Positions 25,825-56,063 of a stretch of DNA of 64,000 nucleotides are shown here, piece by piece (the stretch's first letter is position 1; each line of letters starts with the position of its first letter). Source of the stretch: an uncultured virus (IMG/VR IMGVR_UViG_3300008114_000015) (Duplodnaviria > Heunggongvirae > Uroviricota > Caudoviricetes); IMG/VR virus record IMGVR_UViG_3300008114_000015, one strand, 5' to 3'. Made by a program: the position numbers and the translations under genes. The notes under the pieces are model-generated. The model saw only the letters and a program-made list of their open reading frames with translations. It ran no database searches and was not told the origin of the DNA.

Positions 25825-26277
25825 GTGGCGGTTTTGATGTATATAGATGGCGTGCTTTCCAACAAAGGAGTAGCCATAAAAGACGGGTTAGCCTTGTATC
25901 GAACCCTAAAAGAAAAGATGGCTGTAATCCTTTTATGTGAGGATAAAGAAAAAGCAGACCGCTGGTTAAGAGAAAACAAGATTCTGCAAGTAGACAACAT
26001 AGTTGATCAAAAACTTCCCGGAGCCTTAGATGATGTGCTTTTTAGACAAGCAGAGTGGTGTAGATCCCAGGGTCCAGTAGATTATGTAGTTACTTCAGAT
26101 GTAGACCTGAGTAAAAAACTATTAGAGTTCGGTTTTAGGGTATTGCTGTTTTTAGACCCTGTATACCTAGACCATAAGTTCCGACCAGATACCAGAACCG
26201 GTATGAAAAGCTGGTCAGATATAAAGGCAGAGTTAGATAAACAACAGGATCTGTATTTGGAGGATCCTCGTAAATGA
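25825..26277 (+). CDS. HAD-like protein
   Basis: LMYIDGVL degenerate HAD motif I; ADRWLREN. Confidence 0.5.
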   Translation: MAVLMYIDGVLSNKGVAIKDGLALYRTLKEKMAVILLCEDKEKADRWLRENKILQVDNIVDQKLPGALDDVLFRQAEWCRSQGPVDYVVTSDVDLSKKLLEFGFRVLLFLDPVYLDHKFRPDTRTGMKSWSDIKAELDKQQDLYLEDPRK

Positions 26278-27869: not shown

Positions 27870-29903
27870 ATGTCATTAAGTTTTCGACTAGCGGACGAGT
27901 TCGTGTCCACCTACAAGGAGAAGCAGGTCCCTTGGGGCTATAAAGATGCAGCCGGAAACTCAGTAGGAGAGATCACATTCCTACGAACTTACTCAAGACT
28001 CAAAGAGGACGGGACAAAGGAAACTTGGGTAGACGTTTGTGAGCGAGTAATCAATGGCATGTATTCATTACAAAAAGACCACTGCAAATCCAACCGACTC
28101 CCATGGAATGATGCACGAGCTCAGGCATCAGCCAAAGAAGCCTTTGATCGCCTGTTTCATTTGAAGTGGACTCCACCCGGACGTGGGTTGTGGGTTATGG
28201 GAACCCCACTGGTAAACGAGCAAAAAAACTCTGCAGCTTTGCAGAACTGTGCATTCGTTTCAACCACATCAATGACTAAAATAGACCCCGCAAGACCATT
28301 CGCATTTCTAATGGAAGCATCGATGCTTGGCGTTGGAGTTGGTTTTGACGATAAAGGCGCAGACAAAGAATTCCAAATCTACGAACCACAGGAAGGAGAC
28401 ACTCATGTCGTCCCAGACACCAGAGAAGGATGGGTTGATTCCGTCACACTCCTCATCAATTCCTACCTCCGACCAGATCAGAAGGCTCCACTATTTGATT
28501 ACAAAGAGGTCCGCCCAGCAGGTACGCCAATCAAAACTTTTGGGGGAACAGCGGCCGGGCACGAGCCGTTAGAAAAACTTCACAACCATATTCGTAAACT
28601 GTTTACGGGTAGGGCTGGAGAGAAGTTAACTCGCACTGATATAGCCGATCTTGGAAACCTAATCGGGGTTTGTGTTGTAAGCGGCAACGTACGTCGTTCT
28701 GCTGAGCTTTTAATTGGTAGAGCGGATGACGAGAACTTCCTTAACCTAAAGAACGCTGAAGTATTTCCGGAGCGCAACTCCTATGATCCTAAGAATCCAG
28801 GCTGGGCATGGATGAGCAATAACTCCATTGACGCAACCGTTGGTATGGACTTAAACAAGATCGTAGATGGTATTGCGTTAAACGGTGAGCCAGGTGTTGT
28901 ATGGATGGACATGAGCCGTAAGTATGGGCGTATCAAAGATGGTGTTAATAACAAAGACTGGCGTGTAGCTGGGTATAACCCATGTGCTGAACAGAGCCTT
29001 GAGTCATATGAAATGTGCACACTTGTAGAAACTTATTTAAATCGTCATGACAGCCTTGAAGATTTCAAGCGCACACTTAAGTTTGCGTATTTATATGCCA
29101 AGACTGTAACCCTGTTGCCTACCCACTGGGAAGAAACCAATGCAATCATGCAACGCAATCGCCGTATTGGAACATCTATTTCAGGCGTAGCTAACTTTGC
29201 AGATACCAAAGGCATGCCGGCATTACGTGAATGGATGGATGCAGGATATGAAGTCGTAAAGCAATACGACGTTACATATTCAGAGTGGCTATGTACCCGT
29301 GAGTCAATCAAGATGACAACAGTTAAGCCATCAGGAACAGTTTCAATACTTGCAGGTGAATCACCAGGAGTTCACTGGACACCAGGAGGTGAATACTTCC
29401 TCCGCGCTATTAGATTTAGCAATGAAGATCCGATGTTGCCGTTATTTAAGATGGCTAACTATCGGGTAGAGAAGGCATCAGAATCACCAAAGACAACCTC
29501 TGTGGTGTTCTTCCCTATTAAATCTAATGCTAAACGCTCGGAGAAAGACGTATCAATTTATGAAAAGATGCACCTTGCTTCGACCGCTCAATACTATTGG
29601 TCCGACAATTCTGTTTCAGTGACAGTATCCTTTAACAAAGATACGGAGAAGTCAGCTGTAGGTACAGCGCTTCACATGTTCGACGGACAGCTCAAAACCG
29701 TTTCCTTCTTACCGATGGGGAACGAGACCTATCCGCAGATGCCGTACACCCAGATTACTGAAAAAGAATATGAAGATGCAACGATGAAATTATTCCCCAT
29801 AGATTTCAGCGGAGTATACGCAGGACTTGCAGCCGATGCGATTGGTGAGGCATACTGCACAACTGATGCATGTGAGATCAAATTAATTAAGGAGAATCAA
29901 TGA
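27870..29903 (+). CDS. nrdJ: Class II (adenosylcobalamin-dependent) ribonucleotide reductase, monomeric RTPR type
   Basis: RTYSR, PPGRGLW, LQNCAF, GNVRRSAE, NPCAEQ, TTVKPSGT, C-terminal CTTDAC. Confidence 0.95.
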   Translation: MSLSFRLADEFVSTYKEKQVPWGYKDAAGNSVGEITFLRTYSRLKEDGTKETWVDVCERVINGMYSLQKDHCKSNRLPWNDARAQASAKEAFDRLFHLKWTPPGRGLWVMGTPLVNEQKNSAALQNCAFVSTTSMTKIDPARPFAFLMEASMLGVGVGFDDKGADKEFQIYEPQEGDTHVVPDTREGWVDSVTLLINSYLRPDQKAPLFDYKEVRPAGTPIKTFGGTAAGHEPLEKLHNHIRKLFTGRAGEKLTRTDIADLGNLIGVCVVSGNVRRSAELLIGRADDENFLNLKNAEVFPERNSYDPKNPGWAWMSNNSIDATVGMDLNKIVDGIALNGEPGVVWMDMSRKYGRIKDGVNNKDWRVAGYNPCAEQSLESYEMCTLVETYLNRHDSLEDFKRTLKFAYLYAKTVTLLPTHWEETNAIMQRNRRIGTSISGVANFADTKGMPALREWMDAGYEVVKQYDVTYSEWLCTRESIKMTTVKPSGTVSILAGESPGVHWTPGGEYFLRAIRFSNEDPMLPLFKMANYRVEKASESPKTTSVVFFPIKSNAKRSEKDVSIYEKMHLASTAQYYWSDNSVSVTVSFNKDTEKSAVGTALHMFDGQLKTVSFLPMGNETYPQMPYTQITEKEYEDATMKLFPIDFSGVYAGLAADAIGEAYCTTDACEIKLIKENQ

Positions 29904-30148
29904 GCACTACGGTATATACAAAACCAGATTGCCCACAATGCGATGCAACTAAAAAGTATTTAAACAAATACGGTATTGAATTTAATACTGTTGACATAAC
30001 TGAAAACAAAGATGCTTATGATCTAGTAGTTTCTATGGGGTATAAATACACTCCGGTTGTGGTCAGCAATAACAATCATTGGTCTGGATTTAGACCAGAT
30101 AAAATTGCTTCATTAAGAACAGTGAAACCGGAGAGTAATGCGCTTTAG
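29900..30148 (+). CDS. nrdH: NrdH-like glutaredoxin
   Basis: VYTKPDCPQC...TPVV...WSGFRPDKI. Confidence 0.9.
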   Translation: MSTTVYTKPDCPQCDATKKYLNKYGIEFNTVDITENKDAYDLVVSMGYKYTPVVVSNNNHWSGFRPDKIASLRTVKPESNAL

Positions 30149-30398
30149 TGGCACCCCTTCATGTTTAGGACTTGACACTGAATTGTTCTTTCCTGATGAA
30201 GGAATGCATTATCAACAGTTGGGTCATGTGAAGAGAATATGTAAAAACTGCCCAGTTCAAGATGAATGTTTTAAATACGCAATAGAGAATAAAGTTCAAG
30301 GAATATGGGCGGGCACTACGACAGATCAAAGAGATGAGTACAGAAGAAAGCACAGAATTATAGGTAAAGAAGTACTGCCAGAAATATTGTCGTACTAA
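30138..30398 (+). CDS. whiB: Second WhiB-family transcription factor
   Basis: C...DTELFFP, ICKNCPVQDEC, GIWAGTT..QR. Confidence 0.9.
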   Translation: MRFSGTPSCLGLDTELFFPDEGMHYQQLGHVKRICKNCPVQDECFKYAIENKVQGIWAGTTTDQRDEYRRKHRIIGKEVLPEILSY

Positions 30399-33207: not shown

Positions 33208-33532
33208 GAAAAATCGGCCCCAAATAGATTGGCTTATACATGCAGAGAGAGAGGATATAGAGAGGGACTGACATCTCTTTGCCCTGCCAGCCATTGGGTA
33301 GCAATTAGCTTGCAGTGATATCGGATAGTTTCAGCCGATCGAGGCTGTAAAGCTGGCTGCACAGCCGGGGAGGCCATGACCGGTCAATGCAGTAGCCTAA
33401 TCGACTAGTCGATTTGTCGACATTTAATGTCGGCTATCTCTCTTATCTCTCTTTTTGGCTTCTCTCTTCTCTCTCTGCTCTCTCTGCCAATAGCTATCTC
33501 TCTTATTCATGCTCTCTTCTTCGAAGATCGCT

Positions 33533-33548
33533 TGTTTCACGTGAAACT
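33533..33548. promoter_or_regulatory. parS: parS (ParB/Spo0J-binding) site
   Basis: TGTTTCACGTGAAACT: 15/16 to TGTTTCACGTGAAACA, perfect 14-bp core GTTTCACGTGAAAC, intergenic. Confidence 0.8.
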
Positions 33549-33587
33549 AGCTGGAATAGGCGGCCTGGCCGAGCTTCTCTCTCACTG

Positions 33588-33603
33588 TGTGAGCAATATC
33601 ACA
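33588..33603. promoter_or_regulatory. Perfect CRP-like box
   Basis: TGTGAgcaataTCACA. Confidence 0.65.
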
Positions 33604-33630
33604 GCAAAGCTACTTGACTTTTCGGCCGCA

Positions 33631-33672
33631 CCCTATCCCGAAGGGATGAGGGGTGGGAGGGTCAACACAAAC
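33631..33672 (+). repeat. G-run/CAACACAAAC element copy 1
   Basis: CCCT ATCCC GAA GGGAT GA GGGG T GGG A GGG T CAACACAAAC. Confidence 0.85.
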
Positions 33673-33794
33673 ATTTGGCTTTTGGGAGTAGGCATTTCCC
33701 TTTTAAAAAGAAGAAAGCCGCGCTGACCTGAAACAACGCGGCTTCTCCGTGCTCGACCCTAGGTGGAAGGGTAGTACCTAGGGGAGCAACTCTA

Positions 33795-34064
33795 TTATTC
33801 TTGCAGTGATTCTACGAATGGGTGCAAGTGATGCTGATCTACTATCGCCCGTGCCGGCGCTGTAGTGCGGCCCTTATACGTAATTGGATCCGGTAGCTCT
33901 ATCTCCCGGTCGTAGTCTTCATCCAGGTACGCATCGATTGCAGCTTTGCATGGATCGACCATCGTTAACGGTACCGGCGGATAATGATTGCCGGTTAAGT
34001 GATGGGCCAGGCCTTGATCCAGGTGAATTTGGCCGGCTAAGTCTAACGCTGTTGTGTATCCCAT
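33795..34064 (-). CDS. Hypothetical phage early protein
   Basis: 89 aa, HLTGNHYPPVP...C..AI...HHL motif. Confidence 0.7.
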   Translation of the reverse strand: MGYTTALDLAGQIHLDQGLAHHLTGNHYPPVPLTMVDPCKAAIDAYLDEDYDREIELPDPITYKGRTTAPARAIVDQHHLHPFVESLQE

Positions 34065-34072
34065 ATTGATCC

Positions 34073-34774
34073 CTATCTCTTAGTAATGCTGAACGTTATA
34101 TTGTTAGTGCCCTTGACGCAAATCTTGCATGCAATGCAGGCGCCTTCCAGGGGAATTTGCTTGCGTTGCTCGGGACACTTTGCAGATCTCTCGCCTAGCG
34201 CCAGGAGCATATCCTTGGCTTGATCGAAAGTATCGTGTAATCCTGCCAGTAACACGCCTTCACGCTGTAGGCGTTGAGCGCTTTCGAGATTCTCTTTATC
34301 AGTGGAGAAGTATAAAGTGAGATTCTCTAGGTTCCGGAGCATATAAGCTGCAGACTCTACACGTGTGTAGACCCAGAAGCGAACGTCCGGATGGTTCATG
34401 ATCACATGCTTCCATGCGAATGCATAATCTGAGGAGAAGAAGTCCCCGTCCCAGTGAATGCGAAATTCTTTAGGCGCGGACCACTTGTCACATTCCGCCT
34501 TGAATTCCACAATCATCTCATCGAGTAGACTCTCCATCGTGTCATGATCTGCATCTTTAAGCATCTCCCAATTGTGCATAAGGTTAGTACGCACTGTTGG
34601 ATAGATTTTCTCCAGCTTGCCGGCATAACATATGCGAGCGCAAATTGAAGTCTGCGCCGGGCAGCTGTACTCTCTCCCCGCGGGTAAACCGAAAGAATTA
34701 GCAATTCTTGCAGTCTTCCCATTAGGAGTAAGACTATTAGCCACTTTACGATCTTTGGACCGTTTAAGTTTCAT
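34073..34774 (-). CDS. Gp88-like Fe-S/radical-SAM-like phage protein
   Basis: FGLPAG..YSCP...C...CYA, FRIHWDGDFF, FWVYTR, C-terminal CP...C..C..C. Confidence 0.7.
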   Translation of the reverse strand: MKLKRSKDRKVANSLTPNGKTARIANSFGLPAGREYSCPAQTSICARICYAGKLEKIYPTVRTNLMHNWEMLKDADHDTMESLLDEMIVEFKAECDKWSAPKEFRIHWDGDFFSSDYAFAWKHVIMNHPDVRFWVYTRVESAAYMLRNLENLTLYFSTDKENLESAQRLQREGVLLAGLHDTFDQAKDMLLALGERSAKCPEQRKQIPLEGACIACKICVKGTNNITFSITKR

Positions 34775-34796
34775 GAGACCCCTCTCTTCATTGCTT

Positions 34797-34851
34797 AAGG
34801 TATATGACTCTCCCTCTACGTGTAAGTAGGTTTGCAGTGATCTATCTCACA
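34797..34851 (-). promoter_or_regulatory. Conserved early promoter + CRP-like box (copy 2)
   Basis: AGTGAtctatcTCACA 34836-34851; CAAACCTAC-TTACAC-17nt-TACCTT. Confidence 0.75.
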
Positions 34852-34880
34852 CCAGGCCGAGCCCGCAGCTTATATATATT

Positions 34881-34909
34881 CCCTATGGGGTGGGTGGGCC
34901 GACACAAAC
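34881..34909 (+). repeat. G-run/CAACACAAAC element copy 2
   Basis: CCCT AT GGGG T GGG T GGG C CGACACAAAC. Confidence 0.85.
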
Positions 34910-34961
34910 AACGCGAGCCCCGAGCCGCCGCGAAGCTGGCCCGGGGTGCGTTGTCTCTGAG

Positions 34962-35414
34962 TTAGCTCTGTTCCTCCCAATCTGAGCTTTGTAGATTCCA
35001 GTCATCTACATTGACTTCTGATCCCCAAGCGCTCGCATCTATCGTGATCGAGTCGTGGATCAGTGAATCTGAATCGAAGCTGTCGAGCTCTTTCAGCGGC
35101 ACCTCAGCTGTAATGAACACTTCGATCGTAGCTGTGATGCTGATCGTAGCTGTAGGGTTGACGCCCAGAATCTCTTCGAGCTTACTTAGTACTTCATCTT
35201 TATCTGTATTCGAGTGATACCAGCTTTCACTGGTCATCTCCGAAGTGATAGCTCCAATCTTAGCTTGAGCTGTATCCAGCTCCCGGCGATTGAGCTTAGC
35301 TGTCTCGAGCTTCCACTCGAGGTCTGTAGCTTTATGGATGACGAAGCTTTCGGCCCCGTCATTGATATCCCGCAACGTTACTAGCTGATGCGGATTGTAT
35401 GTCTCAGCTGTCAT
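34962..35414 (-). CDS. Acidic hypothetical protein (AGCT-saturated coding sequence)
   Basis: 150 aa Asp/Glu-rich ORF; GGAAGG RBS; ATGA overlap. Confidence 0.7.
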   Translation of the reverse strand: MTAETYNPHQLVTLRDINDGAESFVIHKATDLEWKLETAKLNRRELDTAQAKIGAITSEMTSESWYHSNTDKDEVLSKLEEILGVNPTATISITATIEVFITAEVPLKELDSFDSDSLIHDSITIDASAWGSEVNVDDWNLQSSDWEEQS

Positions 35415-35665
35415 GCATTCACCTTCCTTGCTGACTTGAGCATTGCATTGAGTTCCGCCTTAATTCGACGGGCATTGTCTCCTCTCCATGACTGGAGATT
35501 AGCCAGTGCATAGGAGACTATTGATTCTGCTGAATCCTCGAAGTACCGGTCTTGCATGGTATCGAGTGACATCATGGGAGTGACATATGCTTCTGCATAT
35601 GGATACCAAGACTTACCCCGGCATTCCCAATCTATCTCCAGCGCTATCTCTCTCAGAGTACGCAT
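35411..35665 (-). CDS. Hypothetical phage early protein
   Basis: 84 aa, DSAESIVSYALANLQSWRG..ARRIKAEL. Confidence 0.7.
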   Translation of the reverse strand: MRTLREIALEIDWECRGKSWYPYAEAYVTPMMSLDTMQDRYFEDSAESIVSYALANLQSWRGDNARRIKAELNAMLKSARKVNA

Positions 35666-35708
35666 TCTCTATCCCTTCACTTAGTTACTATCTGTAACCA
35701 GTGACTGA

Positions 35709-35763
35709 ACCATAGGTCCATCTCTCTTTTAGCGTAAGTAGGTCTGTAGTGATTTACATCACA
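35709..35763 (-). promoter_or_regulatory. Conserved early promoter + CRP-like box (copy 3)
   Basis: AGTGAtttacaTCACA 35748-35763; CAGACCTAC-TTACGC-17nt-TATGGT. Confidence 0.75.
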
Positions 35764-35806
35764 TGACTGCAGCTCTCTTCAGCAGCTGAATGAATATATG
35801 AATATT

Positions 35807-35844
35807 CCCTAGTATATAAATGGGGAGGGCGGGCCAACACAAAC
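35807..35844 (+). repeat. G-run/CAACACAAAC element copy 3
   Basis: CCCTA gtatataaa T GGGG A GGG C GGG C CAACACAAAC. Confidence 0.85.
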
Positions 35845-36086
35845 ATTAGGCATTCGGGAAATAAGATTTGGCGCCCTAAAAAAACGATGCCCGGCCGGGG
35901 CAGCGGCCGAGCTCGTTTGGATCCTAGCGGGGCATAGCTTGGATCATCAGCAGCCTTAGCTGCTACATCTGTTGCACTTGCAGTAAGGACCTTGCATTCC
36001 AGAATCCTTCTCTGCTTCGCACTCGCTCATACAGCATGGGCAATAGTTCTCATGCTGTATGTGCGAGCAACATACGTGCAAAGTTC

Positions 36087-36695
36087 TCACGCGTTGGCTT
36101 TCTCTGCCTCTTCACGTTCAGCACGGAGTTTGGCATAGTATGCCTGGTCCGCATCATCCCATTCTTTAGCAGTTTTGAGCGCTTGCGCTAACTCATCAGC
36201 GGGAGCAAGTGGGTCAATATTAATCTGACGTCCTTGCATTGTTGCTGGCTCTAAATCATAGTGCCAGTAAGAATACGGTTGGGAGTTGGTCCAGATAATC
36301 TCAGACTCGGAGCGAAACATGCGACCGTTGTGGATTTCAAACTTCCATAACGCGCCGTCCTCACCTCGCCATTCAATGTATGAACCATCCTTGGTAAAGG
36401 GAGCCATAACCGCCAAAAATAAATCTTCTTGACCAGTTTTGCTATTGTAGTAAGCAAGTTTGAACCCGCCGTCTACTTTTTCAGTCTCGAATCCGAGTTG
36501 ATTGAAGACACTCTCTACAGTCTCCGCGGTTTCGATATCAGTATCATTCATCCAGGAGAACCACTTCTCGCCATTGGATGAGCCACCACGCTTAATAGCA
36601 TGGTATTTAGTTGGCATCTCTCTAATAGTTGCAAGAGATTCAGGAGATTCAGTTATCTCCCACTCTGCATCTACTAGGTCAATGTAATAACCCAT
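36087..36695 (-). CDS. Hypothetical phage early protein
   Basis: 202 aa; GSYIEWRGEDGALW motif; AAGGGG RBS. Confidence 0.7.
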   Translation of the reverse strand: MGYYIDLVDAEWEITESPESLATIREMPTKYHAIKRGGSSNGEKWFSWMNDTDIETAETVESVFNQLGFETEKVDGGFKLAYYNSKTGQEDLFLAVMAPFTKDGSYIEWRGEDGALWKFEIHNGRMFRSESEIIWTNSQPYSYWHYDLEPATMQGRQINIDPLAPADELAQALKTAKEWDDADQAYYAKLRAEREEAEKANA

Positions 36696-36734
36696 AACCC
36701 CTTCTTTCTCTAGTCGCCCTGACTAGGTAGGTGA

Positions 36735-36800
36735 ACCTTCTCATGTATATCTCTTTCGTGGTAGTAGGTTTGTAAAGTTTCTCTTGTGATTTGAATCACA
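36735..36800 (-). promoter_or_regulatory. Conserved early promoter + CRP-like box (copy 4)
   Basis: TGTGAtttgaaTCACA 36785-36800 (11 bp further upstream than in most copies); CAAACCTAC-TACCAC-17nt-GAAGGT. Confidence 0.75.
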
Positions 36801-36817
36801 GCTGAATAACAACAACT

Positions 36818-36848
36818 CCCTTAACGGGGCGGGTGGGCCAACACAAAC
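36818..36848 (+). repeat. G-run/CAACACAAAC element copy 4
   Basis: CCCT TAAC GGGG C GGG T GGG C CAACACAAAC. Confidence 0.85.
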
Positions 36849-36990
36849 TTTCCCCCGCGGCCGGCGGCCTCAGCTGTGGAATAGGTAGGCACGCAGCTAC
36901 ATCTCCCCGAGAAGTGTGGCGGATCATGAATGCGCTTGGCGGGAGCAAGAAAGGAAATAAACCGCTTTGACGCACCTACCTCGAAATCTA

Positions 36991-37221
36991 CTATGGCAAG
37001 GCTAATCCGGAGATGAACCCGCCACCATTACCCTCCTCATCAGCATAGATCTGAATCTGACCTTTCTGCCCATCCTTGAACCGGACAGTAAATGTAGGGA
37101 ATGGATACATTCCAAACTCATCCTCTACCATCCCGTCATAACTAAGAATCGTGGCGCCCACTAAATCGCCATAATACTTAGAGTAAAACTTTTGAGACTC
37201 AGGACTCACAATCGTGTCCAT
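36991..37221 (-). CDS. Hypothetical protein
   Basis: Likely ATG at 37221 with GAGGTGG RBS; DEEGNGGGF motif. Confidence 0.65.
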   Translation of the reverse strand: MDTIVSPESQKFYSKYYGDLVGATILSYDGMVEDEFGMYPFPTFTVRFKDGQKGQIQIYADEEGNGGGFISGLALP

Positions 37222-37300
37222 ATGCCACCTCATTCGCATCATTCTCATCAAGAAGGTTGAACACCCTCTCGCACTCTACACATGTCGCCATTAGCATCAT
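37199..37300 (-). CDS. 33-aa Cys/His mini-protein (not in ORF track)
   Basis: MMLMATCVECERVFNLLDENDANEVAYGHDCES with AAGGGGCAG RBS. Confidence 0.6.
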   Translation of the reverse strand: MMLMATCVECERVFNLLDENDANEVAYGHDCES

Positions 37301-37337
37301 GTCTGCCCCTTCCGTTAGGTATCTCCTAACTAGACCC

Positions 37338-37392
37338 AATCTAATGCCTAGCACTAGTTAGCACAATAGGCTTTGTAGTGATCCACATCACA
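37338..37392 (-). promoter_or_regulatory. Conserved early promoter + CRP-like box (copy 5)
   Basis: AGTGAtccacaTCACA 37377-37392; CAAAGCCTA-TTGTGC-17nt-TAGATT. Confidence 0.75.
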
Positions 37393-37404
37393 CGAGCTCT
37401 CTTT

Positions 37405-37454
37405 CCCTATCCCTTTAGGGATCAGGCTCAGGGTGGGTGGGAGCCAACACAAAC
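37405..37454 (+). repeat. G-run/CAACACAAAC element copy 5
   Basis: CCCT ATCCCT TT AGGGAT caggctc A GGG T GGG T GGG AGC CAACACAAAC. Confidence 0.85.
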
Positions 37455-37524
37455 AAGTGGCTTCGGGTTTGGCGTTCCCTAAAAAACGAGCGCCCCCTTT
37501 CGGGGGCAACTCGCTTGGGGCAAC

Positions 37525-38010
37525 CTACCAACTTGCTTGGTAGATAACTTGCCAATCATCACCTAAGGCGAGCGCCTTATCTATGATGTCAATGGTTTCC
37601 ATCAGGTCGTTGTAATACCACTCATCTTTCTCGGTTGAGCCGAAGAAGAAACCAGCCGTTGGCTGAAGTGGGTCATCACTCACCAGAGTAGTGCCAATCT
37701 TTTGTTGCTCGGCTTTCATGTTCTCCATGATGAACTGAGCAAGGTCTTGACCGCTACCAACAGGTTGCTTGATAACTACATTGTCCTCATTATTCGGAAC
37801 TGCGTTCTCTCGGTTTGCGAGAGCATTATTACAATCCGAACGGAGTTTTAGAAGTTGCTCACGAGATACAAAAATCTCTTGGCACTCATCTAATCCATTA
37901 GCGCACTCACGAACGAACCAACCATGAACAGCGTTAGCCTTGCGCCAATAACCCAACTCTTGATACTCGCTATTTGTAGAGCGAGCGCCTAGATACATGT
38001 CCAACCCCAT
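37525..38010 (-). CDS. Conserved phage protein (YWRKAN.VH.WF type)
   Basis: MGLDMYL...GYWRKANAVHGWF...GFFFGST...YQASW. Confidence 0.75.
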   Translation of the reverse strand: MGLDMYLGARSTNSEYQELGYWRKANAVHGWFVRECANGLDECQEIFVSREQLLKLRSDCNNALANRENAVPNNEDNVVIKQPVGSGQDLAQFIMENMKAEQQKIGTTLVSDDPLQPTAGFFFGSTEKDEWYYNDLMETIDIIDKALALGDDWQVIYQASW

Positions 38011-38387
38011 TAGAGATACCTTCCGATTTCCTTCATGGTGCTTGCTGATACATACTCATCTTCGCTCATGCCTAAGATACGAACAGCATTAGCGATTTCA
38101 TCAACCTCATGGCTACCCAACTCGCTTTCTAAATCGCCAAGTCGTGGTTCATCAGGTATGCGTGTTCCGTTTGGAACTTTGTAAGAAATAGATACTGAGT
38201 TTCGCCATGTGGAATAACTAACATCATCTATTTCTAGTGGTAGTTTGCCAACCGCTTCTGCCCATGATTTTTTATCTTGCTCGTATTTATCACGAACGAT
38301 TTGGTTGCGTGCTGATACCTCTCGGTTTTCTGCTACTCTGCGTTCCAGACCAGCGATTACCAGATTTACAGGCACTTTTACTTTCAT
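38010..38387 (-). CDS. Hypothetical protein
   Basis: 125 aa; AAGGGGCAG RBS; TAATG coupling to the next gene. Confidence 0.7.
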   Translation of the reverse strand: MKVKVPVNLVIAGLERRVAENREVSARNQIVRDKYEQDKKSWAEAVGKLPLEIDDVSYSTWRNSVSISYKVPNGTRIPDEPRLGDLESELGSHEVDEIANAVRILGMSEDEYVSASTMKEIGRYL

Positions 38388-38425
38388 TACTGCCCCTTCC
38401 GTTGATGACCTTCACCAACACTCTT

Positions 38426-38480
38426 AGTTTTGCTTATCTCGTTAGTTAGCGTAAGTAGGTTTGATGTGATGTGCGCCACA
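38426..38480 (-). promoter_or_regulatory. Conserved early promoter + CRP-like box (copy 6)
   Basis: TGTGAtgtgcgCCACA 38465-38480; CAAACCTAC-TTACGC-17nt-AAAACT. Confidence 0.7.
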
Positions 38481-38498
38481 CGAACTCTCTCAACAACT

Positions 38499-38547
38499 CC
38501 CTTACGAAGTAAGTCAGAGACTAGGGTGGGCGGGTCTCAACACAAAC
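38499..38547 (+). repeat. G-run/CAACACAAAC element copy 6
   Basis: CCCT TAC GAA GTA AGTC AGA GACT A GGG T GGG C GGG TCT CAACACAAAC. Confidence 0.85.
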
Positions 38548-38617
38548 ATTTGCGCGAGCTGCGGCCGGCGCGATCCACCGAACCCCCCACCCTTGCGAGT
38601 GGGGGTCGGCGTGAGTT

Positions 38618-39082
38618 CTAGGAAATGACCAGTTCCCTATTCTCCGTAAGGGTTTCGACAACCTTCGGATGAAGTTCCGCACGCATGCTTGCGAAATCCA
38701 TTGGCATACCCGAGGCAAGAACCCGAGAGAGCAACTTAGCGAGAGAGTAATCAGGATTTAGACTCTGCGCTGTGAATAGTGAAGCGTGGGCGAGGTCGTT
38801 ATCCCCTGCTTCAGAGTAGAAGGCGGATAATACGGAGTAGAACGGAACTCGGTCGGCTTCCGCTACGAGTGGCAACAGGTCGGATACGAAACTAATCGCT
38901 CCTTGTGCCGTTAGAACATCAGGTAGTAATCCGAGAATATAATCCCGAACTTGTAGGTCGTTATTTACTGCGAACGCCACAACTTCAGCGAGGTCTGCTG
39001 ATAGTGGTGCGTTATTTACATGCTCCAGCATGAGAGCGTCTATCGCTTCTACTGCTGAGCCGTAAGTGATGACTTTGGTCAT
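38618..39082 (-). CDS. DUF4192-like helical protein
   Basis: NDLQVRDY and NPDYSLAKLL motifs resemble actinobacterial DUF4192. Confidence 0.5.
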   Translation of the reverse strand: MTKVITYGSAVEAIDALMLEHVNNAPLSADLAEVVAFAVNNDLQVRDYILGLLPDVLTAQGAISFVSDLLPLVAEADRVPFYSVLSAFYSEAGDNDLAHASLFTAQSLNPDYSLAKLLSRVLASGMPMDFASMRAELHPKVVETLTENRELVIS

Positions 39083-39130
39083 CTTTGCCCCTTCTTTCTT
39101 ATCGGCTACTTCTGTTTCACCGATAGGAGA

Positions 39131-39185
39131 ACCTTCTCACTTTCTCACAGTTAGCGGAATAGGCTTTGTTGTTATCTACATCACA
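39131..39185 (-). promoter_or_regulatory. Conserved early promoter + CRP-like box (copy 7)
   Basis: TGTTAtctacaTCACA 39170-39185; CAAAGCCTA-TTCCGC-17nt-GAAGGT. Confidence 0.7.
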
Positions 39186-39219
39186 TTCCTGGCCGAACAT
39201 CTGTTCGAGCTTCTCTCCC

Positions 39220-39270
39220 CCCTATTCCCTTTAGGGTTGAGTCAGGGTGGGTGGGCTGACCAACACAAAC
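39220..39270 (+). repeat. G-run/CAACACAAAC element copy 7
   Basis: CCCT ATT CCCT TT AGGG ttgagtc A GGG T GGG T GGG CTGAC CAACACAAAC. Confidence 0.85.
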
Positions 39271-39332
39271 ATTTCGCCGAGCAAGACGAAGCGCCCACCG
39301 ATTGGCAGGCGCTCCGCTGTTGTGGGGCAACT

Positions 39333-39878
39333 CTATTGTTTGAGCATTTCCCTAATGTTGTTCATGACATCTTCATCAGATAGCTGTTCGCCGTCCGTGT
39401 TGATCCATTCCATGATTTGGTCAATCATCTCGCCGTCTGTCATTTCCCCTCCTCGAAGAAGCACTCGGTGATTGTTCCCCAGCAGTATCCATCGCCAACC
39501 CAGTTGATGTGAGTGGCTAGGTAATAGATACCTATGACTAATGATGTCCAGAATAAGACCCGAACAAGTGTTCGAATTCGATAGTAAGTAGGACTACGCA
39601 TCACGAAGTCCGTTTTCCTCAAAGATTGTGGCACTCACGCCGTAATCAAAGAGATTGGTTGCGCCCGCCATGCTTGAGATGTGGGAGATGGTGTTGAGCA
39701 TTGAGGAAGCAAGGTCTTTATCTACACCTAGTCGCACTAGGTCGTTGATTGCCTCGGATACCAGCCACTCGCTGAATGATGTGATGTGATTGCGAAAGAA
39801 CGGGAAGTCCTCGTCGCTGAGGTTTGCGCTTGAGGTGATTAACATCATGCGCTTTGCGTTTTCTGCTGTGATTGCCAT
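39333..39878 (-). CDS. Three small genes: 39594-39878, 39440-39601 (one TM segment), 39333-39443
   Basis: Overlapping ORFs; AAGGGGCAAC RBS before ATG 39878; GAGGAGGGG before ATG 39443. Confidence 0.6.
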
Positions 39879-39920
39879 TTGTTGCCCCTTTACCAACACT
39901 CGGTCGGTGTTGATGGTTGA

Positions 39921-40019
39921 ACTATGGCAGACACGCTGAGTTAGCGGAAGTAGGTTTGTAATAATGTGGCGCATCTCACAAAGCTGACCCCCCCAGGGTT
40001 AAATGTGGCCAAAATCACA
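39921..40019 (-). promoter_or_regulatory. Conserved early promoter (copy 8) + two CRP-like boxes
   Basis: CAAACCTAC-TTCCGC-17nt-CATAGT; TGTGGcgcatcTCACA 39965-39980 and TGTGGccaaaaTCACA 40004-40019. Confidence 0.7.
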
Positions 40020-40487
40020 AAGGGGGGCCAGGTCTCAAATGTAGGTAACACCTCAATTTGTCACACAGTAGCCTAGGGAGTAGAGTCGGCCCCCATGCGA
40101 TACAAGCTTATGGAGTACGACTTCTTTGCGGAAGAGTGGAGTGGTCAATGTGGCGCTTGTGGATTCTGGTTATATGCTCCGAATAAGGAAGCGTACAATG
40201 AGTCCCGCTGGATACATACGCATTCAGATCAATGCCTTGGAGGTTATTAATGAAAGAGCCGTTTATTGTTGAAAGAGATGACATTATTGGTGTTATCTGG
40301 CATCCGGATCTCGGAGAGTTACCTATCCTTGTTGGATCTCGTGATTTCTTCGAATACCTTGAAGAACAAGGCTATGAAGACACTATGGAAGCAGATGAAT
40401 TAATATTTGAGTTGCGTGACTACATCCGCACAGAATGCGAAAAGATTTAGACCAAATTCAGCCCCTTGCTGACTTACCCTATATGCC

Positions 40488-40718: not shown

Positions 40719-41809
40719 ATGCCTAAGAAATCTGACCGCGTAGATAATTCTGACTGGAAGAACTCTTCCCCTAAAACAGGCACAGGTGAAACCTGGCGTC
40801 AGTGGGCCATGGCCAATCCAAATCGCAAAGCAAATGCAAAGAAAGCTCTTGCTGAGACTGATCCTAATAGTCCAGATTTCGTAGCAACCACAACTAATAC
40901 TCGTTCCGGTACTAAGGCAAGAGATGCACAAGTTGGCAAATGGCAAAAGGCCCGTCCTGTAACAGGCAAGGGTGGAGCAAAGAGTGATGCTGAGAAAGAA
41001 AAGAAGCGTCAGAAGATGATCCAATGGGCACAATGGAATCCTAATAAGCGTTCTAACGCACAACGTGCATTAAAGAAGAGCAAGTAATGGAACCTAACAA
41101 GACTCAATTTGGCAAAGTAATCTCAATGGCAGATTACAAAGCAAAGAAAGAAGAACAGACTCAACCCGGCGAGCGCATGTGGGGACCACAACATGCAGGA
41201 GTTGTGAAGAAGTATGAAAAAGAAGATTAAAGATCCTGCACTAGGACGCACACGTGAAGAACGTGCATTTGGTGAAGGTGTACGTACAGGGTCGTCTCGG
41301 GCGAAAGAGTTCTATGGAACACGTTCTATTCAAGGCGGAATCTATGGCGGTGTACGTCCATCATTCGGTCGCTATCAAGTCTCTGAACAAGCTACAGATA
41401 TGTTGGGACGATAATGCCTAGACAGAAAAAAGTTTCCATGTACAAAGGGCGCACCTTAAGTCAAATGGCTACTGGAAAGCAAGACCATTCCGCAAAAAAG
41501 GCTTTGACGTCTAGGGCTGTAAAAATGAACTATCATCCAGATGCAGCTTCTGAAATATTAAAACATATGTCAGAAAACAAGGTTGCTAAGGTTGATCCGA
41601 AGGTTGCTGACAAGATTGACCAAGATTGGGCCCAACGACAACTTAATACTCCGGGATCTCAACAGTTTAGAGGGTTGATGGAAGAGGCCCCTAATAACGC
41701 TCCCGTGTACGGTAGCAAAGAAAACAGAATTCGTAGATCAATGGAAAACAATCCTAAGTTAGACTTAAAACCCGCTGAAGCGGATATAGACAGGGACAGG
41801 TATATCTAA
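40719..41809 (+). CDS. Run of small basic hypothetical genes (40719-41087, 41087-41230, 41214-41414, 41414-41809)
   Basis: Coupled Lys/Arg-rich ORFs. Confidence 0.55.
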
Positions 41810-42087
41810 TGGCTACTAAAACTGCTGCATGGACCCGCAAAGAAGGAAAAAATCAAAAAGGCGGTCTAAATGAAAAAGGACGTAAGTCTTATGAACGTGC
41901 AAATCCGGGAAGCGATCTTAAGCCACCCGTCAAGCGCGAACAAGCAAAGAAAAGCCCTAAGTCAGCTGCTAGACGCAAATCTTTTTGCGCCCGTATGGAA
42001 GGCATGAAGAAGCAGAATACATCTGCCAAAACTGCTCGTGATCCAAACAGTCGCATTAATAAATCACTTCGCGCCTGGGATTGCTAA
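41809..42087 (+). CDS. Conserved basic phage protein (DUF6321-like)
   Basis: AWTRKEGKN.KGGLNEKGR...RRKSFCARM...SRINKSLRAWDC. Confidence 0.7.
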   Translation: MATKTAAWTRKEGKNQKGGLNEKGRKSYERANPGSDLKPPVKREQAKKSPKSAARRKSFCARMEGMKKQNTSAKTARDPNSRINKSLRAWDC

Positions 42088-42368: not shown

Positions 42369-42662
42369 ATGGCTGAAACTAAAAAGTTTGGTCCTTATAA
42401 AGGATCTAAAGCTAATGGCGGTCGTCCTATTTACGTCTATAAGAAGAAAGTAGACGGCAAGTGGGTTACTACCTCTAAGAATAAAGCACGTGCAGATTAC
42501 GAGTCTAAAAACGGCAAAATTGGCGACAAGAACAAAACTGTTGACCACAAAGACAATAACCACAATAATGACTCTAAAGGTAATTTAAGAGTGCTATCTA
42601 GAAGCAAGAACACTGCCAAAGAGAACAAACGCCGTGCAGGAAAGAAGGAGAACGAGAAGTGA
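42369..42662 (+). CDS. HNH-like endonuclease
   Basis: VDHKDNNHNNDSKGNLRVLSRSKN. Confidence 0.7.
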   Translation: MAETKKFGPYKGSKANGGRPIYVYKKKVDGKWVTTSKNKARADYESKNGKIGDKNKTVDHKDNNHNNDSKGNLRVLSRSKNTAKENKRRAGKKENEK

Positions 42663-47112: not shown

Positions 47113-47628
47113 GTGATTATTATGGCATCAGGCTACCCAAATTCTTGGGAACCACATAAGCACAAGCAATGGGATAAGTACGAATACTCGAAACTCCCAA
47201 CAACTACAGTAAAACCTCAAACCCTTGCTGATTTACTCAGCGCTCAATTCTTCTTAGGGTTTCAAGATCAAATCAATCGTTGGAACACGTTGACCTCATA
47301 TAAGACAACGACCTTTCCACCCTACAACCTAATCAAAGTGGATGATGACCATTACACAGTGGAAATCGCCCTGGCTGGGTACAAGAAAGAAGACATTGAA
47401 GTAACTGTAGAAAAAGACCTGCTCATCGTTAAAAGCGTTGAAAAAGAAGAGGACAAAGGCGAAGAGGTTCTTCATCAAGGAATCGCCAAGCGTCTATGGA
47501 CTCAAAGGTTCGTGCTTGGGGAGTGGATGGAAGTTAAAGAGGCTACCCTTAAAGACGGGCTATTGACCATCAAGGTGGAACGTGAAGTTCCCGAAGAGGA
47601 AAAGCCCAAAGTAATCAAGGTCAAGTAA
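47113..47628 (+). CDS. Small heat-shock protein Hsp20/IbpA-like
   Basis: FPPYNLIK, EIALAGY, LHQGIAKR, ATLKDGLLTI...PEEEKPK. Confidence 0.92.
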   Translation: MIIMASGYPNSWEPHKHKQWDKYEYSKLPTTTVKPQTLADLLSAQFFLGFQDQINRWNTLTSYKTTTFPPYNLIKVDDDHYTVEIALAGYKKEDIEVTVEKDLLIVKSVEKEEDKGEEVLHQGIAKRLWTQRFVLGEWMEVKEATLKDGLLTIKVEREVPEEEKPKVIKVK

Positions 47629-48217: not shown

Positions 48218-48525
48218 GAGACAGAGAATTTAGAGACGCGCTTACTCGAGCTTCCGGAGCAGTAAAAGGCATGGAGACAGAGGCTAAGCAATGGGATCGA
48301 TTTACTCCGTGAGTAAAAAGGCTGAGTTTAAATCCTCGTCCCAACACAAACCTATAACAATCAAAGACTCTAGGTTTGGGATTAGGAAGTTTTACCAGAA
48401 TAAGCAGGATGAATCGACCATTTTCTCCTATGCTAATCCAGGTAGAACTAACTGGACTTATAGATAACAATCCTTAGAGGAGCATTCTGGGCTATCCTTG
48501 GAGATAGCAAAGTGAAAGGAAGAAC

Positions 48526-51851: not shown

Positions 51852-52062
51852 GGAACAACGGTCGGTAAAGCCGTGGGATTTAGTTAACCCCAATGTAATG
51901 CACGTATCTGACGAGGTAAAAAAGTCTCGTATGGATATATGCCTTGGCTGTGAGCACTTAATTAAGTTCACAAAGCAATGCAAAAAGTGTGGGTGCCTTA
52001 TGCATCTAAAAACAAAATTAGCACCGGCATCATGTCCGGTAGGAAAATGGGGAGCTGTCTAA
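51844..52062 (+). CDS. Small Cys-rich protein
   Basis: RMDICLGC...QCKKCGC...K....CPVGKW. Confidence 0.65.
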   Translation: MSEEQRSVKPWDLVNPNVMHVSDEVKKSRMDICLGCEHLIKFTKQCKKCGCLMHLKTKLAPASCPVGKWGAV

Positions 52063-55961: not shown

Positions 55962-56063
55962 GCTCAAAAGTATACCAGCATGCAAAGACAAAGACCAAAG
56001 GCTCTTGGACAATAGTAAGGCGCCCCGATCAGGCGCTATACCACTCTAGAGAAAAGGTAAATA

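Follow-up and report, generated by a model that had tools for sequence, protein, structure and literature searches.

Early-gene cassettes and the element at their junctions

The window analysed here, a 64-kb stretch of DNA, belongs to the genome (about 96 kb) of an uncultured, WhiB-encoding actinophage from freshwater. This genome carries two WhiB genes, and whiB is used as an actinophage marker (PMC6802176). It also encodes a UvsX-like recombinase, one HNH endonuclease (gene at 42369-42662) and, in an 845-aa open reading frame (ORF), a low-complexity Pro/Thr/Glu protein. Among the ORFs scanned, many small ones of which lack annotation, no member of the nickase, HUH or tyrosine-recombinase families was found, and the scan revealed no phage RNA polymerase. 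The early genes form an array of tandem cassettes on the minus strand, and the G-rich strand of the repeat described below is therefore their template, as an earlier sequence-only reading had stated.

That reading had described a seven-site repeat family in a single orientation, which is borne out: GGGNGGGNGGG occurs seven times in the window, always on the plus strand, whereas shuffles average 0.16 occurrences and never give more than 2. Within 1-5 nt of each run follows the decamer CAACACAAAC, or CGACACAAAC in copy 2, and the plus-strand consensus of the seven sites is GGGNGGGNGGG followed by C(A/G)ACACAAAC. The exact decamer is found nine times in the window, where 0.15 occurrences are expected, and CCCT is present at the start positions given in that reading. 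The repeat unit, however, exceeds this description: it also takes in a GC hairpin upstream, a GAGAG tract downstream and, optionally, an AGGG..GCC..CCC..GCC module (Table 1).

Read in gene sense, a junction begins with the stop codon, a GC-rich RNA hairpin, a few A/U, the decamer GTTTGTGTYG and the C-tract CCCNCCCNCCC, and continues with a small hairpin and an AGGGA/GAGAG purine tract, after which come the next cassette's operator, promoter and G-rich ribosome site. The core sits after terminators and about 100-200 nt before the next start. The element lies between cassettes, as had been proposed, and does so at 7/7 internal junctions; the end of the array's last unit lacks it and no element was found in other intergenic regions of the 96-kb genome, leaving exactly one per internal junction. 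The promoter/operator blocks of the cassettes, read from the sequence, are putative. Upstream of the array's first such block (39947..39980) there is no decamer, C-tract or GAGAG, which identifies the element as a feature of junctions and not as part of a promoter. Searches of the window with the Rfam 15 covariance models, among them 6C, CRISPR repeats and the twister, pistol and hatchet ribozymes, gave no match at gathering score, and at E up to 5 over 33400-40100 the sole hit was a weak ctRNA, on a terminator. The junction sequence is an undescribed, highly conserved element at every boundary between neighbouring early-gene cassettes. Its seven sites form the invariant core of a composite module, locked in orientation, that separates tandem, independently regulated cassettes. 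Its role is most likely the separate control of these cassettes.

Table 1. Coordinates of the junction elements and associated features in the window.
Feature	Position	Strand	Details
GGGNGGGNGGG starts	33651, 34888, 35823, 36827, 37431, 38524, 39245	+	
First putative promoter/operator of array	39947..39980	-	TGTGAGATGCGCCACA..ACAAACCTACTT
GC hairpin region upstream of copy 7	39273..39322	-	without T-run
Copy 7 core	39226..39270	-	decamer 39261-39270, C-tract 39245-39255, AGGGA 39226-39231, GAGAG 39213-39217; stem GTCAG/CTGAC around C-tract; CCC-UAAA-GGG hairpin
Putative promoter/operator 3' of copy 7	39158..39185	-	TGTGA-N6-palindrome 39170-39185 overlaps -35-like GTGATG, 17 nt, TATTCC
Copy 6 core	38498..38547	-	decamer 38538-38547, C-tract 38524-38534, AGGGA 38498-38503, GAGAG 38487-38491; stem GAGAC/GUCUC around C-tract; CUUAC-UUC-GUAAG hairpin
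Terminator hairpin and T-run upstream of copy 5	37491..37508	-	module 37455-37484
Copy 5 core	37410..37454	-	decamer 37445-37454, C-tract 37431-37441, AGGGA 37410-37415, GAGAG 37397-37401; stem GGCUC/GAGCC around C-tract; AUCCC-UAAA-GGGAU hairpin
Copy 4 core, short form	36817..36848	-	decamer 36839-36848, C-tract 36827-36837, CCCC-G..AAGGGA-G; without GAGAG
Terminator hairpin and T-run upstream of copy 3	35889..35912	-	module 35845-35881
Copy 3 core, short form	35806..35844	-	decamer 35835-35844, C-tract 35823-35833, AGGGA 35806-35811, GAGAG 35773-35777
GC hairpin directly upstream of copy 2	34916..34937	-	decamer is the sole U-rich tail
Copy 2 core, short form	34880..34909	-	decamer variant GTTTGTGTCG 34900-34909, C-tract 34888-34898, AGGGA 34880-34885
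Terminator hairpin and T-run upstream of copy 1	33714..33745	-	module AGGG..GCC..CCC..GCCAAAU at 33673-33708
Copy 1 core, position-specific 'T-type', array's last	33630..33672	-	decamer 33663-33672, C-tract 33651-33661; AUCCC-UUC-GGGAU hairpin, AGGGU
Equivalent putative promoter/operator blocks	38454-38480, 37365-37392, 36763-36800, 35737-35763, 34825-34851, 33555-33603	-	
Extra decamer CAACACAAAC without G-tract	48342..48351	+	
Extra decamer without G-tract	58126-58135	+	
Decamer, reverse orientation	28668-28677		

Conservation and folding of the element

The same core is present in 115 IMG/VR stretches, with 140 distinct copies and 6-9 copies per genome; judged from these records, the element is found in a clade of uncultured freshwater actinophages. 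In the relatives it is confined to internal cassette junctions and nearly always points the same way as the genes, and relatives fetched by protein match, not by motif, carry 6-7 copies per array on the gene strand, with one exception. Within the core 21 nt are invariant.

The hairpins upstream of the core are selected at the RNA level: they contain 100 single G.U mismatches, compared with 24.4 in shuffles, and 23 A.C mismatches, compared with 21. In 109/138 copies the decamer follows the end of the hairpin at a distance of 0-8 nt; over all 138 the median is 5 nt. An intrinsic terminator consists of a GC-rich RNA hairpin with a U-tract immediately behind it. In 97/138 no T-run is present in the 70 nt upstream of the decamer, which is therefore the only U-rich tail of these copies. 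In 34/138 a T-run lies at least 15 nt upstream of the decamer (16 of these with the spacer module), and there the decamer is redundant as a tail, which speaks against its reading as a terminator tail. An arrangement of hairpin-TTTTT-GTTTGTGTTG also occurs at a terminator outside the array in two relatives.

Folding inside the element had been proposed as well. The hairpins quoted, ATCCC-GAA-GGGAT, TTAC-GAA-GTAA and CCCT-TT-AGGG, are present and were recovered when copies 1, 5, 6 and 7 were folded as DNA; these small hairpins are real, with strand-specific triloops, but AGTC-AGA-GACT is weaker than a 5-bp stem which flanks the G/C-tract in copies 5-7. Where the spacer is at least 3 nt, this stem pairs fully in 48/62 copies with 28 distinct arm sequences, whereas an arm-swap control averages 10.35 and never exceeds 19; the flanking stem thus covaries. 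About half of all copies lack a stem around the C-tract. In neither strand of the seven window copies does any fold beat shuffles in stability (z -1.39 to +1.03), a result against the terminator and insulator reading proposed below. A second perfect hairpin is found in 72/115 open-class copies, its loops being UUC (11 different stems), UAC (5) and UAAA (4), with their complements never on that strand; the G strand accordingly shows GAA/GTA triloops where the coding strand has UUC/UAC. Mismatches inside the element are again mostly G.U (31, compared with 14.9 in shuffles; A.C 18, compared with 14.1). The 'closed' copies (13/140) carry a perfect inverted second decamer and 10-11 nt terminal inverted repeats; 11/11 aligned are fully paired, leaving no room for covariation.

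Three further candidates were rejected. An upstream open reading frame or leader peptide, which would have a conserved frame, start and stop, was discarded since spacer lengths shift the frame and no ribosome site is present; the frame xTG TTT GTG TTG has a median of 14 aa, compared with 10.5 and 19.5 in the other frames. Integron attC sites are imperfect inverted repeats that have the core-site consensus GTTRRRY and its inverse and act with an integron integrase; the decamer does not fit this consensus, only 13/140 copies have an inverted partner and the ORFs scanned include no tyrosine recombinase. In an N4-type promoter, the virion RNA polymerase that the phage encodes uses a hairpin of the template strand whose loop is three purines long; here the GAA/GTA triloop hairpins occur in 72/115 copies but no such polymerase was found.

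A possible composite terminator and insulator

We tentatively favour, at less than even confidence, a reading in which the junction would act as a composite terminator and insulator on transcripts leaving the upstream cassette. The hairpin and the U/G-rich decamer would form a weak intrinsic terminator of the actinobacterial type, while the C3-N-C3-N-C3 tract would be kept exposed, either in the loop of the covarying stem or just 5' of a hairpin. The exposed tract could then handle leak-through by masking the next cassette's G-rich ribosome site on read-through RNA or, alternatively, by serving as a Rho entry site, and each cassette would be expressed only from its own operator-controlled promoter. 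As a by-product, the core may serve as a joint where cassettes reshuffle by recombination, because its 21 nt are identical at every junction.

This reading draws on the position of the element, the RNA-level hairpins upstream, the structure inside the element, the ribosome sites, the differing cassette orders and the precedents of 6C and the PeSLs described below. Several observations bear on the masking step. GGGG is present in the ribosome site of 12/22 first genes after an element and of 9/43 later cassette genes; with a strict pattern, AAGGGG precedes 3 minus-strand cassette starts in the window, compared with AAGGAG before 9 plus-strand genes. In read-through RNAs folded in silico (n=97), the ribosome site has a median paired fraction of 0.79, compared with 0.56 in a 45-nt leader and 0.59 in a C-to-A tract version (n=97), and pairing of the C-tract with the ribosome site is predicted in 37/97. 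No covariation was detected between C-tract type and ribosome-site type (17/28 vs 42/68, p = 1.0), so that the masking idea rests on thermodynamics common to any C-rich/G-rich pair. Rho utilisation sites are long, C-rich, G-poor and unstructured RNAs associated with Rho dependence, and typical entry sites are far longer than the 11-nt C-tract, which argues against the Rho step; the C-rich stretch here spans only about 11-25 nt and is followed by the G-rich purine tract. Other points also count against the composite terminator and insulator: the element lies 3' of terminator-like hairpins, the C-tract does not covary with the purine tract that follows (p = 0.10 and 0.38), a single natural copy has been inverted along with its upstream module, decamers outside the array lie mostly on the same DNA strand and in the opposite sense to local transcription, and a generic U-rich tail does not explain the invariance of the decamer at the nucleotide level.

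Repeated structured signals between early genes are known from lambda nut and T7 early RNase III sites, and the nut sites (boxA and boxB hairpin) lie downstream of promoters and upstream of terminators. Like nut, the element combines a conserved linear motif with a small hairpin of conserved loop and variable stem; unlike nut, it lacks anything resembling boxA, and neither an N-like nor a Q-like protein was identified here. Stoperators are 13-bp repressor sites of temperate phages. The stoperators of Cluster A mycobacteriophages (PMC9283540) and the SAS/ESAS of Cluster K are, like our element, short asymmetric sequences that recur many times between actinophage genes, all pointing the same way and shared by different gene families; SAS immediately precede start codons, and ESAS are inverted repeats of 17 bp (Pope et al., 2011, PMC3203893). 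The core described here differs in its position after terminators, its sequence, its folded part and the lack of a known repressor.

Alternative explanations

The decamer could instead be a DNA-level polar signal, a genome-wide strand-specific site for a phage or host protein such as a T5-type nickase, a Chi-like or translocase-orienting site, a site of helicase/primase loading or a transcription roadblock, which in the array would be joined to an extrudable hairpin displaying the C/G tract. G001, a complete genome nearly identical to this one, has 12 decamers on one strand (6/12 outside the array) and a single one on the opposite strand, and among 210 composition-matched permutations (mean count 0.30) the decamer ranks first with 6; two further open-class genomes have ratios of 9:1 and 1:10, with 0-2 for reversed-pattern controls. 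In 3/3 genomes a decamer outside the array directly adjoins a covarying GC hairpin that follows the major capsid gene. This over-representation on the same strand, beside hairpins, keeps such a signal a serious rival, albeit an unlikely one. The 21 invariant nt and the second decamers of the 13 closed copies are consistent with it, single-stranded DNA also tolerates G.T wobble, and the G strand displays GNA triloops, which are known stable DNA mini-hairpins. However, closed-class genomes show no decamer polarity, A/C-rich coding strands account for some of the strand bias, 4-5 of the 6 additional G001 decamers fall within genes and in differing reading frames, and no nickase, HUH or tyrosine-recombinase family is among the ORFs scanned. 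Decamer and C-tract are separated by a spacer of variable length (1-6 nt) and hairpins are inserted, and a folded strand therefore fits better than one rigid double-stranded site. In the nicked genomes of T5 and phiKMV-like phages, and with Chi/KOPS, a short motif likewise occurs many times on one DNA strand only; here, unlike in those, most copies cluster in a 6-kb array and are coupled to a C/G tract.

It is doubtful that recombination or selfish spread is the main nature of the element, with a decamer/C-tract core that lacks a function of its own, either a PeSL-like cassette under concerted evolution or a REP/MITE-like repeat colonising terminator-promoter gaps. Cassette order and content differ between relatives (order in the window versus L131/L132 and L134) with breakpoints at the elements; 70 pairs share a subtype despite unrelated flanks and 20 have both flanks homologous yet different subtypes; and the inverted copy, the terminal inverted repeats of the closed copies and the UvsX-like recombinase also speak for this reading. 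Yet every internal junction has one copy and only one, the other intergenic regions of the 96-kb genome have none, a single copy among those examined departs from the usual orientation, and neither a transposase nor a target-site duplication was seen. Moreover, between phages that share 30-75% identity in their cassette proteins the core is invariant and the flanks cannot be aligned, and the covarying stem with its fixed loops implies selection on a folded form. In T4-type phages, promoter-early stem-loop cassettes (PeSLs) drive shuffling (Arbiol et al., 2010, PMC2839356): short conserved units of a terminator stem-loop and an early promoter, repeated between small non-essential genes, act as joints for modular shuffling. 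Cassettes of this type flank small accessory genes and have gene-order breakpoints at the repeats. Our junctions likewise have a hairpin and an operator/promoter each, and order breakpoints at the elements. The conserved part of a PeSL is the sigma-70 promoter and stem-loop, whereas here the promoter and terminator stem vary between copies and the invariant decamer, C3NC3NC3 and GGGA/GAGAG are an extra part.

A further reading, which we consider distinctly improbable, is an insulator RNA whose anti-Shine-Dalgarno-like C3NC3NC3 would silence read-through translation, with possible trans action and capsid-mRNA pairing. The tract is proposed to be exposed by a variable scaffold and anchored by the invariant decamer; once processed, the RNA may act like a multi-copy 6C-type sRNA on host G-rich ribosome sites, and the abundant capsid mRNA, whose 3' end carries the complement of the decamer, could pair with all early junctions late in infection. 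If so, the core would be a new kind of phage insulator RNA.

There is also little probability that the cassette 3' ends release trans-acting RNAs of the 6C/RoxS/RsaE type, whose C-rich-loop hairpins would bind host or phage G-rich ribosome sites. The C-rich loops of the 6C sRNA of Actinobacteria bind such sites without a chaperone (Mai et al., 2019, PMC6486639), and the element resembles 6C and other C-rich-loop sRNAs in its single-stranded C-rich hairpin loops on covarying stems, its actinobacterial setting (two WhiB genes), its 6-9 copies per genome and its G-rich potential partners. Unlike 6C, it has no independent transcription unit, no promoter or terminator of its own being visible, half of the copies lack the closing stem, and its invariant decamer has no counterpart in 6C; with E values up to 5 allowed, neither sequence nor structure matched the Rfam 6C model. 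6C was not found in 41 genomes of the putative host family, a search of doubtful sensitivity since the control was detected in only 1/14 known genomes.

The sequence-only reading itself favoured a template-strand switch between G-quadruplex and hairpin acting as a polymerase roadblock, which is highly improbable. G3-N1-G3-N1-G3 is the strongest type of G4 core, with N never G on that strand, and the fourth run assigned to copies 1, 5 and 7 exists in these alone if loops of up to 12 nt are allowed (3/7), but in 1/7 with loops of up to 7 nt. Over all copies, the four-run motif is found in only 35/140 (loops up to 7 nt) or 51/140 (up to 12 nt) and absent in 105/140 and 89/140, respectively, and a canonical G-quadruplex is therefore not a conserved property. 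Moreover, the fourth run, where present, is one arm of a conserved hairpin, and the three runs are enclosed by the covarying stem in the 48 copies that pair fully. The same reading's fallback ideas were a C-rich Rho entry site, an RNA family and a recombination or nick site. Two of these, an RNA-level element on the C-rich coding strand and a recombination joint, agree more closely with the comparative data than a G4 roadblock does.

The element and its place in the early-gene array

In the window, the genes from 39,985 to 30,456 are minus-strand, and their cassettes are separated by seven copies of a conserved element, numbered such that copy 7 comes first in gene sense. The sequence-only reading had claimed a repeat family of a single orientation, and this is borne out: GGGNGGGNGGG runs occur seven times, on the plus strand only and between 33.6 and 39.3 kb, compared with 0.16 in shuffled sequences. 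CAACACAAAC (CGACACAAAC in copy 2) lies 1-5 nt past each run, the CCCT starts and small hairpins described in that reading are present, and copies 1, 5 and 7 do have the fourth G-run assigned to them. In gene sense, the element comprises a C-tract and a decamer, GTTTGTGTYG, exact matches to which number 9 in the window (0.15 expected).

The order of parts is common to every junction (see the table). At the first promoter of the array, the operator and -10 block are present and decamer, C-tract and GAGAG are all absent, as they also are from the end of the last unit; therefore, the element is a property of internal junctions and not of promoters or terminators as such. Two other interpretations of the core were rejected, namely a sigma-70-type promoter, the -10 being inconsistent and the spacing differing by more than 20 nt, and a leader peptide (MFVL..PP..), whose frame and stop are not conserved.

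Parts of a junction in gene sense, and positions of further features
Feature	Position	Detail
Junction part 1		stop codon of upstream gene
Junction part 2		GC-rich hairpin
Junction part 3		module T-run/AGGG/GCC/(AAAU..AUUU hairpin)/CCC/RAW/GCC/AAU, some copies only
Junction part 4		four A/T-rich bases
Junction part 5		GTTTGTGTYG (decamer)
Junction part 6		spacer, 1-6 nt
Junction part 7		CCCNCCCNCCC (C-tract)
Junction part 8		small hairpin
Junction part 9		(T)AGGGA(R)T
Junction part 10		short tandem repeat
Junction part 11		GAGAGAG
Junction part 12		TGTGA-N6-TCACA-type operator, overlapping a -35-like hexamer
Junction part 13		TAYTNN, -10-like hexamer, 16-17 nt after the -35-like hexamer
Junction part 14		AAGGGG ribosome site, then first gene of next cassette
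First promoter of array	39,947-39,980	
Leader after copy 1	33400-33560	minus strand
Short-form examples	36817-36837; 34880-34898	
Cassette-leading genes	39890; 39093; 38398; others	AAGGGG(C) ribosome site
Decamers outside array	48342-48351; 58126-58135; 28668-28677	
Inverted element	L134:4440-4570	in a relative
WhiB-like genes	15914-16240; 30138-30398	
SpoVS-like gene	18812-19084	
PHROG 'queuine tRNA-ribosyltransferase'-like gene	26274-27740	without Pfam match
Match to both ends of G001	41806-41919	about 114 bp
HNH endonuclease	42369-42662	
845-aa protein	43188-45725	no family match
Hsp20	47113-47628	
2OG-Fe(II) oxygenase genes, three	50506-52673 and 55221-56012	

The operators 3' of the element, just after GAGAG, differ between cassettes and phages (loci L012, L019, L023, L046, L066, L072, L090 and L105) and include TGTGA-N6-TCACA, CGTTATCAAATCGTTAT, GACACGCCG, CGAACA-N2-TGTTCG and ATGACCAGTCAT. 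Several match the DnaA-box consensus (TTATCCACA/TGTGGATAA), often in tandem. Copy 1 is followed by a leader of about 400 nt, in which a GA-rich stretch with GAGAGATAGC repeats and two palindromes, TCGACTAGTCGA and GTCGACATTTAATGTCGAC, is present; at this position, relatives carry TTGACA-type promoters and TGTCGACAAAGCGAT.

Distribution among relatives

The pattern of decamer and C-tract was found in 115 IMG/VR contig stretches, which together with the window provide 140 distinct copies. The open class, to which the window belongs, comprises 127 copies, 114 of them with GAGAG within 80-90 nt. The 13 copies of the closed class carry, past the C-tract, two or three hairpins as well as a perfect inverted decamer, and all 10 pairs of the decamer helix are kept in 11 aligned copies, none being variable. 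The N positions of the C-tract hold any base other than C (A, T or G), and core variants of at most two changes are hardly seen in the loci examined (one real variant). Relatives were also found independently of the motif, through the GP88-like cassette protein: where this protein is at least 73% identical, the relative has 6-7 element copies, and at 56-60% identity it has none, even when one mismatch is allowed. Distant GP88-bearing phages carry ordinary repeated terminator-promoter units in place of the element, e.g., TCCGTAAAAAAT-N-TATAAT; the arrays of three of them (L137, L135 and L139) are punctuated by conserved units of their own, namely a hairpin with TCCGTAAAAAAT-N-TATAAT, AAATGTCGGTGG-N-TATAAT and the conserved hairpin GCCCGCAA..GTGGGGGCC.

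No Rfam family matches the element, and the strings GTTTGTGTTG, CAACACAAAC, CCCACCCTCCC and GGGTGGGTGGGCC led, among the 20 matches listed of 384 papers with at least one of them, to primers, guides and c-MYC G4 work and to no phage. The finding is real and richer than first reported, and no prior description was found in these searches. Low-GC actinobacteria are very abundant in freshwater, yet gene regulation in their phages is almost unstudied. No other non-coding sequence of the clade is as conserved as this element, which stands at every boundary of shuffled small accessory genes with many operator types; an understanding of its working would show how accessory cassettes stay independently controlled yet exchangeable.

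Comparative evidence for structure and strand

Single copies fold no better than shuffled sequences, be it as RNA of the coding strand or as DNA of the G strand (z -1.39 to +1.03), and structural support must therefore rest on comparison and not on energy. Where the spacer measures at least 3 nt (62 copies), it can pair with the bases past the C-tract. This flanking stem is complete in 48 of the 62, with 28 different arm sequences, compared with a mean of 10.35 and a maximum of 19 fully paired after swapping arms between copies (pairs were counted by script, since one MAFFT alignment did not preserve both registers of the stem). When formed, the stem leaves the C-tract as a loop of 10-13 nt. 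A pseudoknot between the C-tract and downstream purines was rejected, its co-variation not being significant.

A second perfect hairpin of at least 4 bp is present in 72 of 115 open copies. Among 36 distinct hairpins of this kind, the loops include TTC (11, on at least eight different stems), TAC (5) and TAAA (4), and the complementary loops GAA, GTA and TTTA never occur on the coding strand; this one-sidedness indicates that one particular strand is under selection. Single mismatches, whose counts include related copies and are not independent, mark the upstream hairpins as RNA helices on the coding strand by their signature (G.U 100 vs. 24.4 in shuffled sequences, A.C 23 vs. 21), and lean more weakly to the same strand within the element (G.U 31 vs. 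14.9, A.C 18 vs. 14.1).

In the short-form subtype, the base following CCCC is the same as that following GGGA (A in 25/25, G in 23/24), a relation of identity and not of complementarity, and a tandem repeat of 3-4 nt beginning with this base comes next (GTTGTTG, ATTATTAT, GTATGTATG). In the T group, T is kept after GGGA or GGG in all 18 copies but that of L121. The whole regularity may reflect three lineages only.

A candidate terminator or insulator

The 70 nt upstream of the decamer form strong structures (median -31.75 kcal/mol), and in 109/138 copies 0-8 nt separate the decamer from the end of the last upstream helix. A T-run is absent from these 70 nt in 97/138 copies, in which the U/G-rich decamer is therefore the sole U-rich sequence past the hairpin; in a further 34/138 it lies at least 15 nt upstream of the decamer, with the spacer module in between for 16 of the 34. 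Outside the array, two relatives carry a bidirectional terminator, hairpin-TTTTT-GTTTGTGTTG, on the array strand and without a C-tract. Among metatranscriptome contigs, which cannot show transcript ends, the matches listed for runs X16 and X17 (one study) lie on array gene bodies, none of them bridging an element, and those of run X15, which is of doubtful kind, bridge copies 1, 3, 4 and 5. Tentatively, we favor a terminator or insulator that targets the coding-strand transcript where cassettes meet, a scheme of which we infer every mechanistic step. An understanding of the element would also provide actinobacterial genetics with a compact terminator/insulator part.

The ribosome site of the next cassette may also be involved. 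GGGG occurs in this site in 12/22 first genes after an element vs. 9/43 following genes. With a strict pattern, plus-strand genes of the window give 9 matches to AAGGAG and 1 to ARGGGG, and AAGGGG precedes three minus-strand cassette starts; most other phage genes have AAGGAG. When hypothetical read-through RNAs from decamer to start codon were folded in silico (n=97), the median paired fraction of the ribosome site was 0.79, vs. 0.56 for a 45-nt leader and 0.59 with the C-tract changed in silico, and the C-tract was its pairing partner in 37/97 folds. In these models, masking of the site is thermodynamically likely, and we take it no further than that. C-tract type and ribosome-site type do not co-vary.

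A possible polar signal at the DNA level

In G001, a complete related phage genome, the decamer occurs 12 times on the strand corresponding to the window's plus strand, with 6 of these beyond the array, and once on the opposite strand; the mean count for composition-matched permutations is 0.30, and among 210 the decamer takes first place. The strand ratio is 9:1 and 1:10 in two further open-class genomes (G043 and G047, respectively), and the strands are balanced in three genomes with closed copies. In 3/3 genomes, an outside-array decamer follows a covarying GC hairpin just past the major capsid gene, in the opposite sense to local transcription, and other such decamers lie within genes. A polar DNA signal, double- or single-stranded, would explain this genome-wide bias more simply than an RNA signal, but accounts less well for the variable spacer and the strand-specific loops, and we regard it as a rather doubtful alternative. 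Proof of such a role for the decamer would suggest that actinophages possess an unrecognised system for nicking, recombination or a packaging-related process.

Cassette shuffling and the remaining alternatives

With E denoting the element, the window and its relative L130 share the order [g39594, g39440] E [DUF4192] E [g38010, g37525] E [g36991] E [g36087] E [g35411, g34962] E [GP88, g33795] E. In L131/L132, g37525 lies ahead of DUF4192 and a g39594-like gene alongside g38010; in L134, g37525 and g36991 are joined and precede DUF4192, and one element has been inverted along with its AGGG..GCC..CCC..GCC module, the T-run terminator on one side and the GAGAGAG/promoter on the other being unchanged. 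A given subtype of the element does not go with particular neighboring genes: 70 same-subtype pairs lack a homologous flank, and in 20 pairs both flanks are homologous and the subtypes differ. Only the last element, ATCCC-TTC-GGGAT, is position-specific. Association of subtype with the upstream or the downstream gene gave a mixed result (8/97 vs. 1/108 at a similarity of at least 0.8, reversed to 6 vs. 17 at 0.5-0.8). The promoter-early stem-loop cassettes (PeSLs) of T4-type phages show the same shuffling behavior (PMC2839356).

Under the terminator/insulator reading, shuffling would be a consequence of the element's function; that the element is mainly a recombinational or selfish repeat, to which the rearrangements and the inverted copy would also be relevant, appears unlikely to us. 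Still less credit is given to an RNA acting in trans through the C-tract loop of the flanking stem; Rfam 6C, the actinobacterial sRNA with C-rich loops, was not detected in the putative host-family genomes searched, the control being weak. The G-quadruplex switch proposed from the sequence is highly improbable, since a fourth run, found in just 35/140 copies (51/140 with longer loops), is not a conserved feature.

Phage, host and genome

The window encodes a DnaB-type helicase, primase, PolA, UvsX-like recombinase, ribonucleotide reductase, large terminase and portal, and the nearest of the records compared, G001 (96,030 bp, 99.9% identical, circularly permuted), additionally encodes sheath, tube, baseplate and major capsid protein. 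Two WhiB-like genes identify the phage as an actinophage, whiB serving as such a marker for freshwater phages (PMC6802176). A HIP1/cyanophage origin was rejected, as GCGATCGC does not occur in the window and the WhiB genes indicate Actinobacteria. The metagenome runs containing the window sequence are mostly freshwater or lake. Streptomyces phage BRock, the closest cultured relative (terminase 54% identical), has no array, and CCCNCCCNCCC occurs in it once, as does the reversed control.

Among bacterial and archaeal genomes (596 Gb), the decamer and C-tract pattern gave 38 matches, 35 of which are chance occurrences in GC-rich DNA; the three with complete architecture, all on small MAG contigs (Nanopelagicaceae, two; Rhodoferax, one), provide a weak hint of the host. 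As partners of the element, a phage RNA polymerase, sigma factor, integrase and HUH nuclease were rejected, none being found among the ORFs scanned with PHROGs/Pfam in the window and the rest of G001. The N-terminus of the 845-aa protein is signal-like, and the protein contains very long low-complexity tracts of Pro/Thr/Ser/Glu. The 'direct terminal repeat' of G001, both ends of which match one segment of the window, may have arisen simply as an overlap in the assembly of a genome that is circularly permuted.
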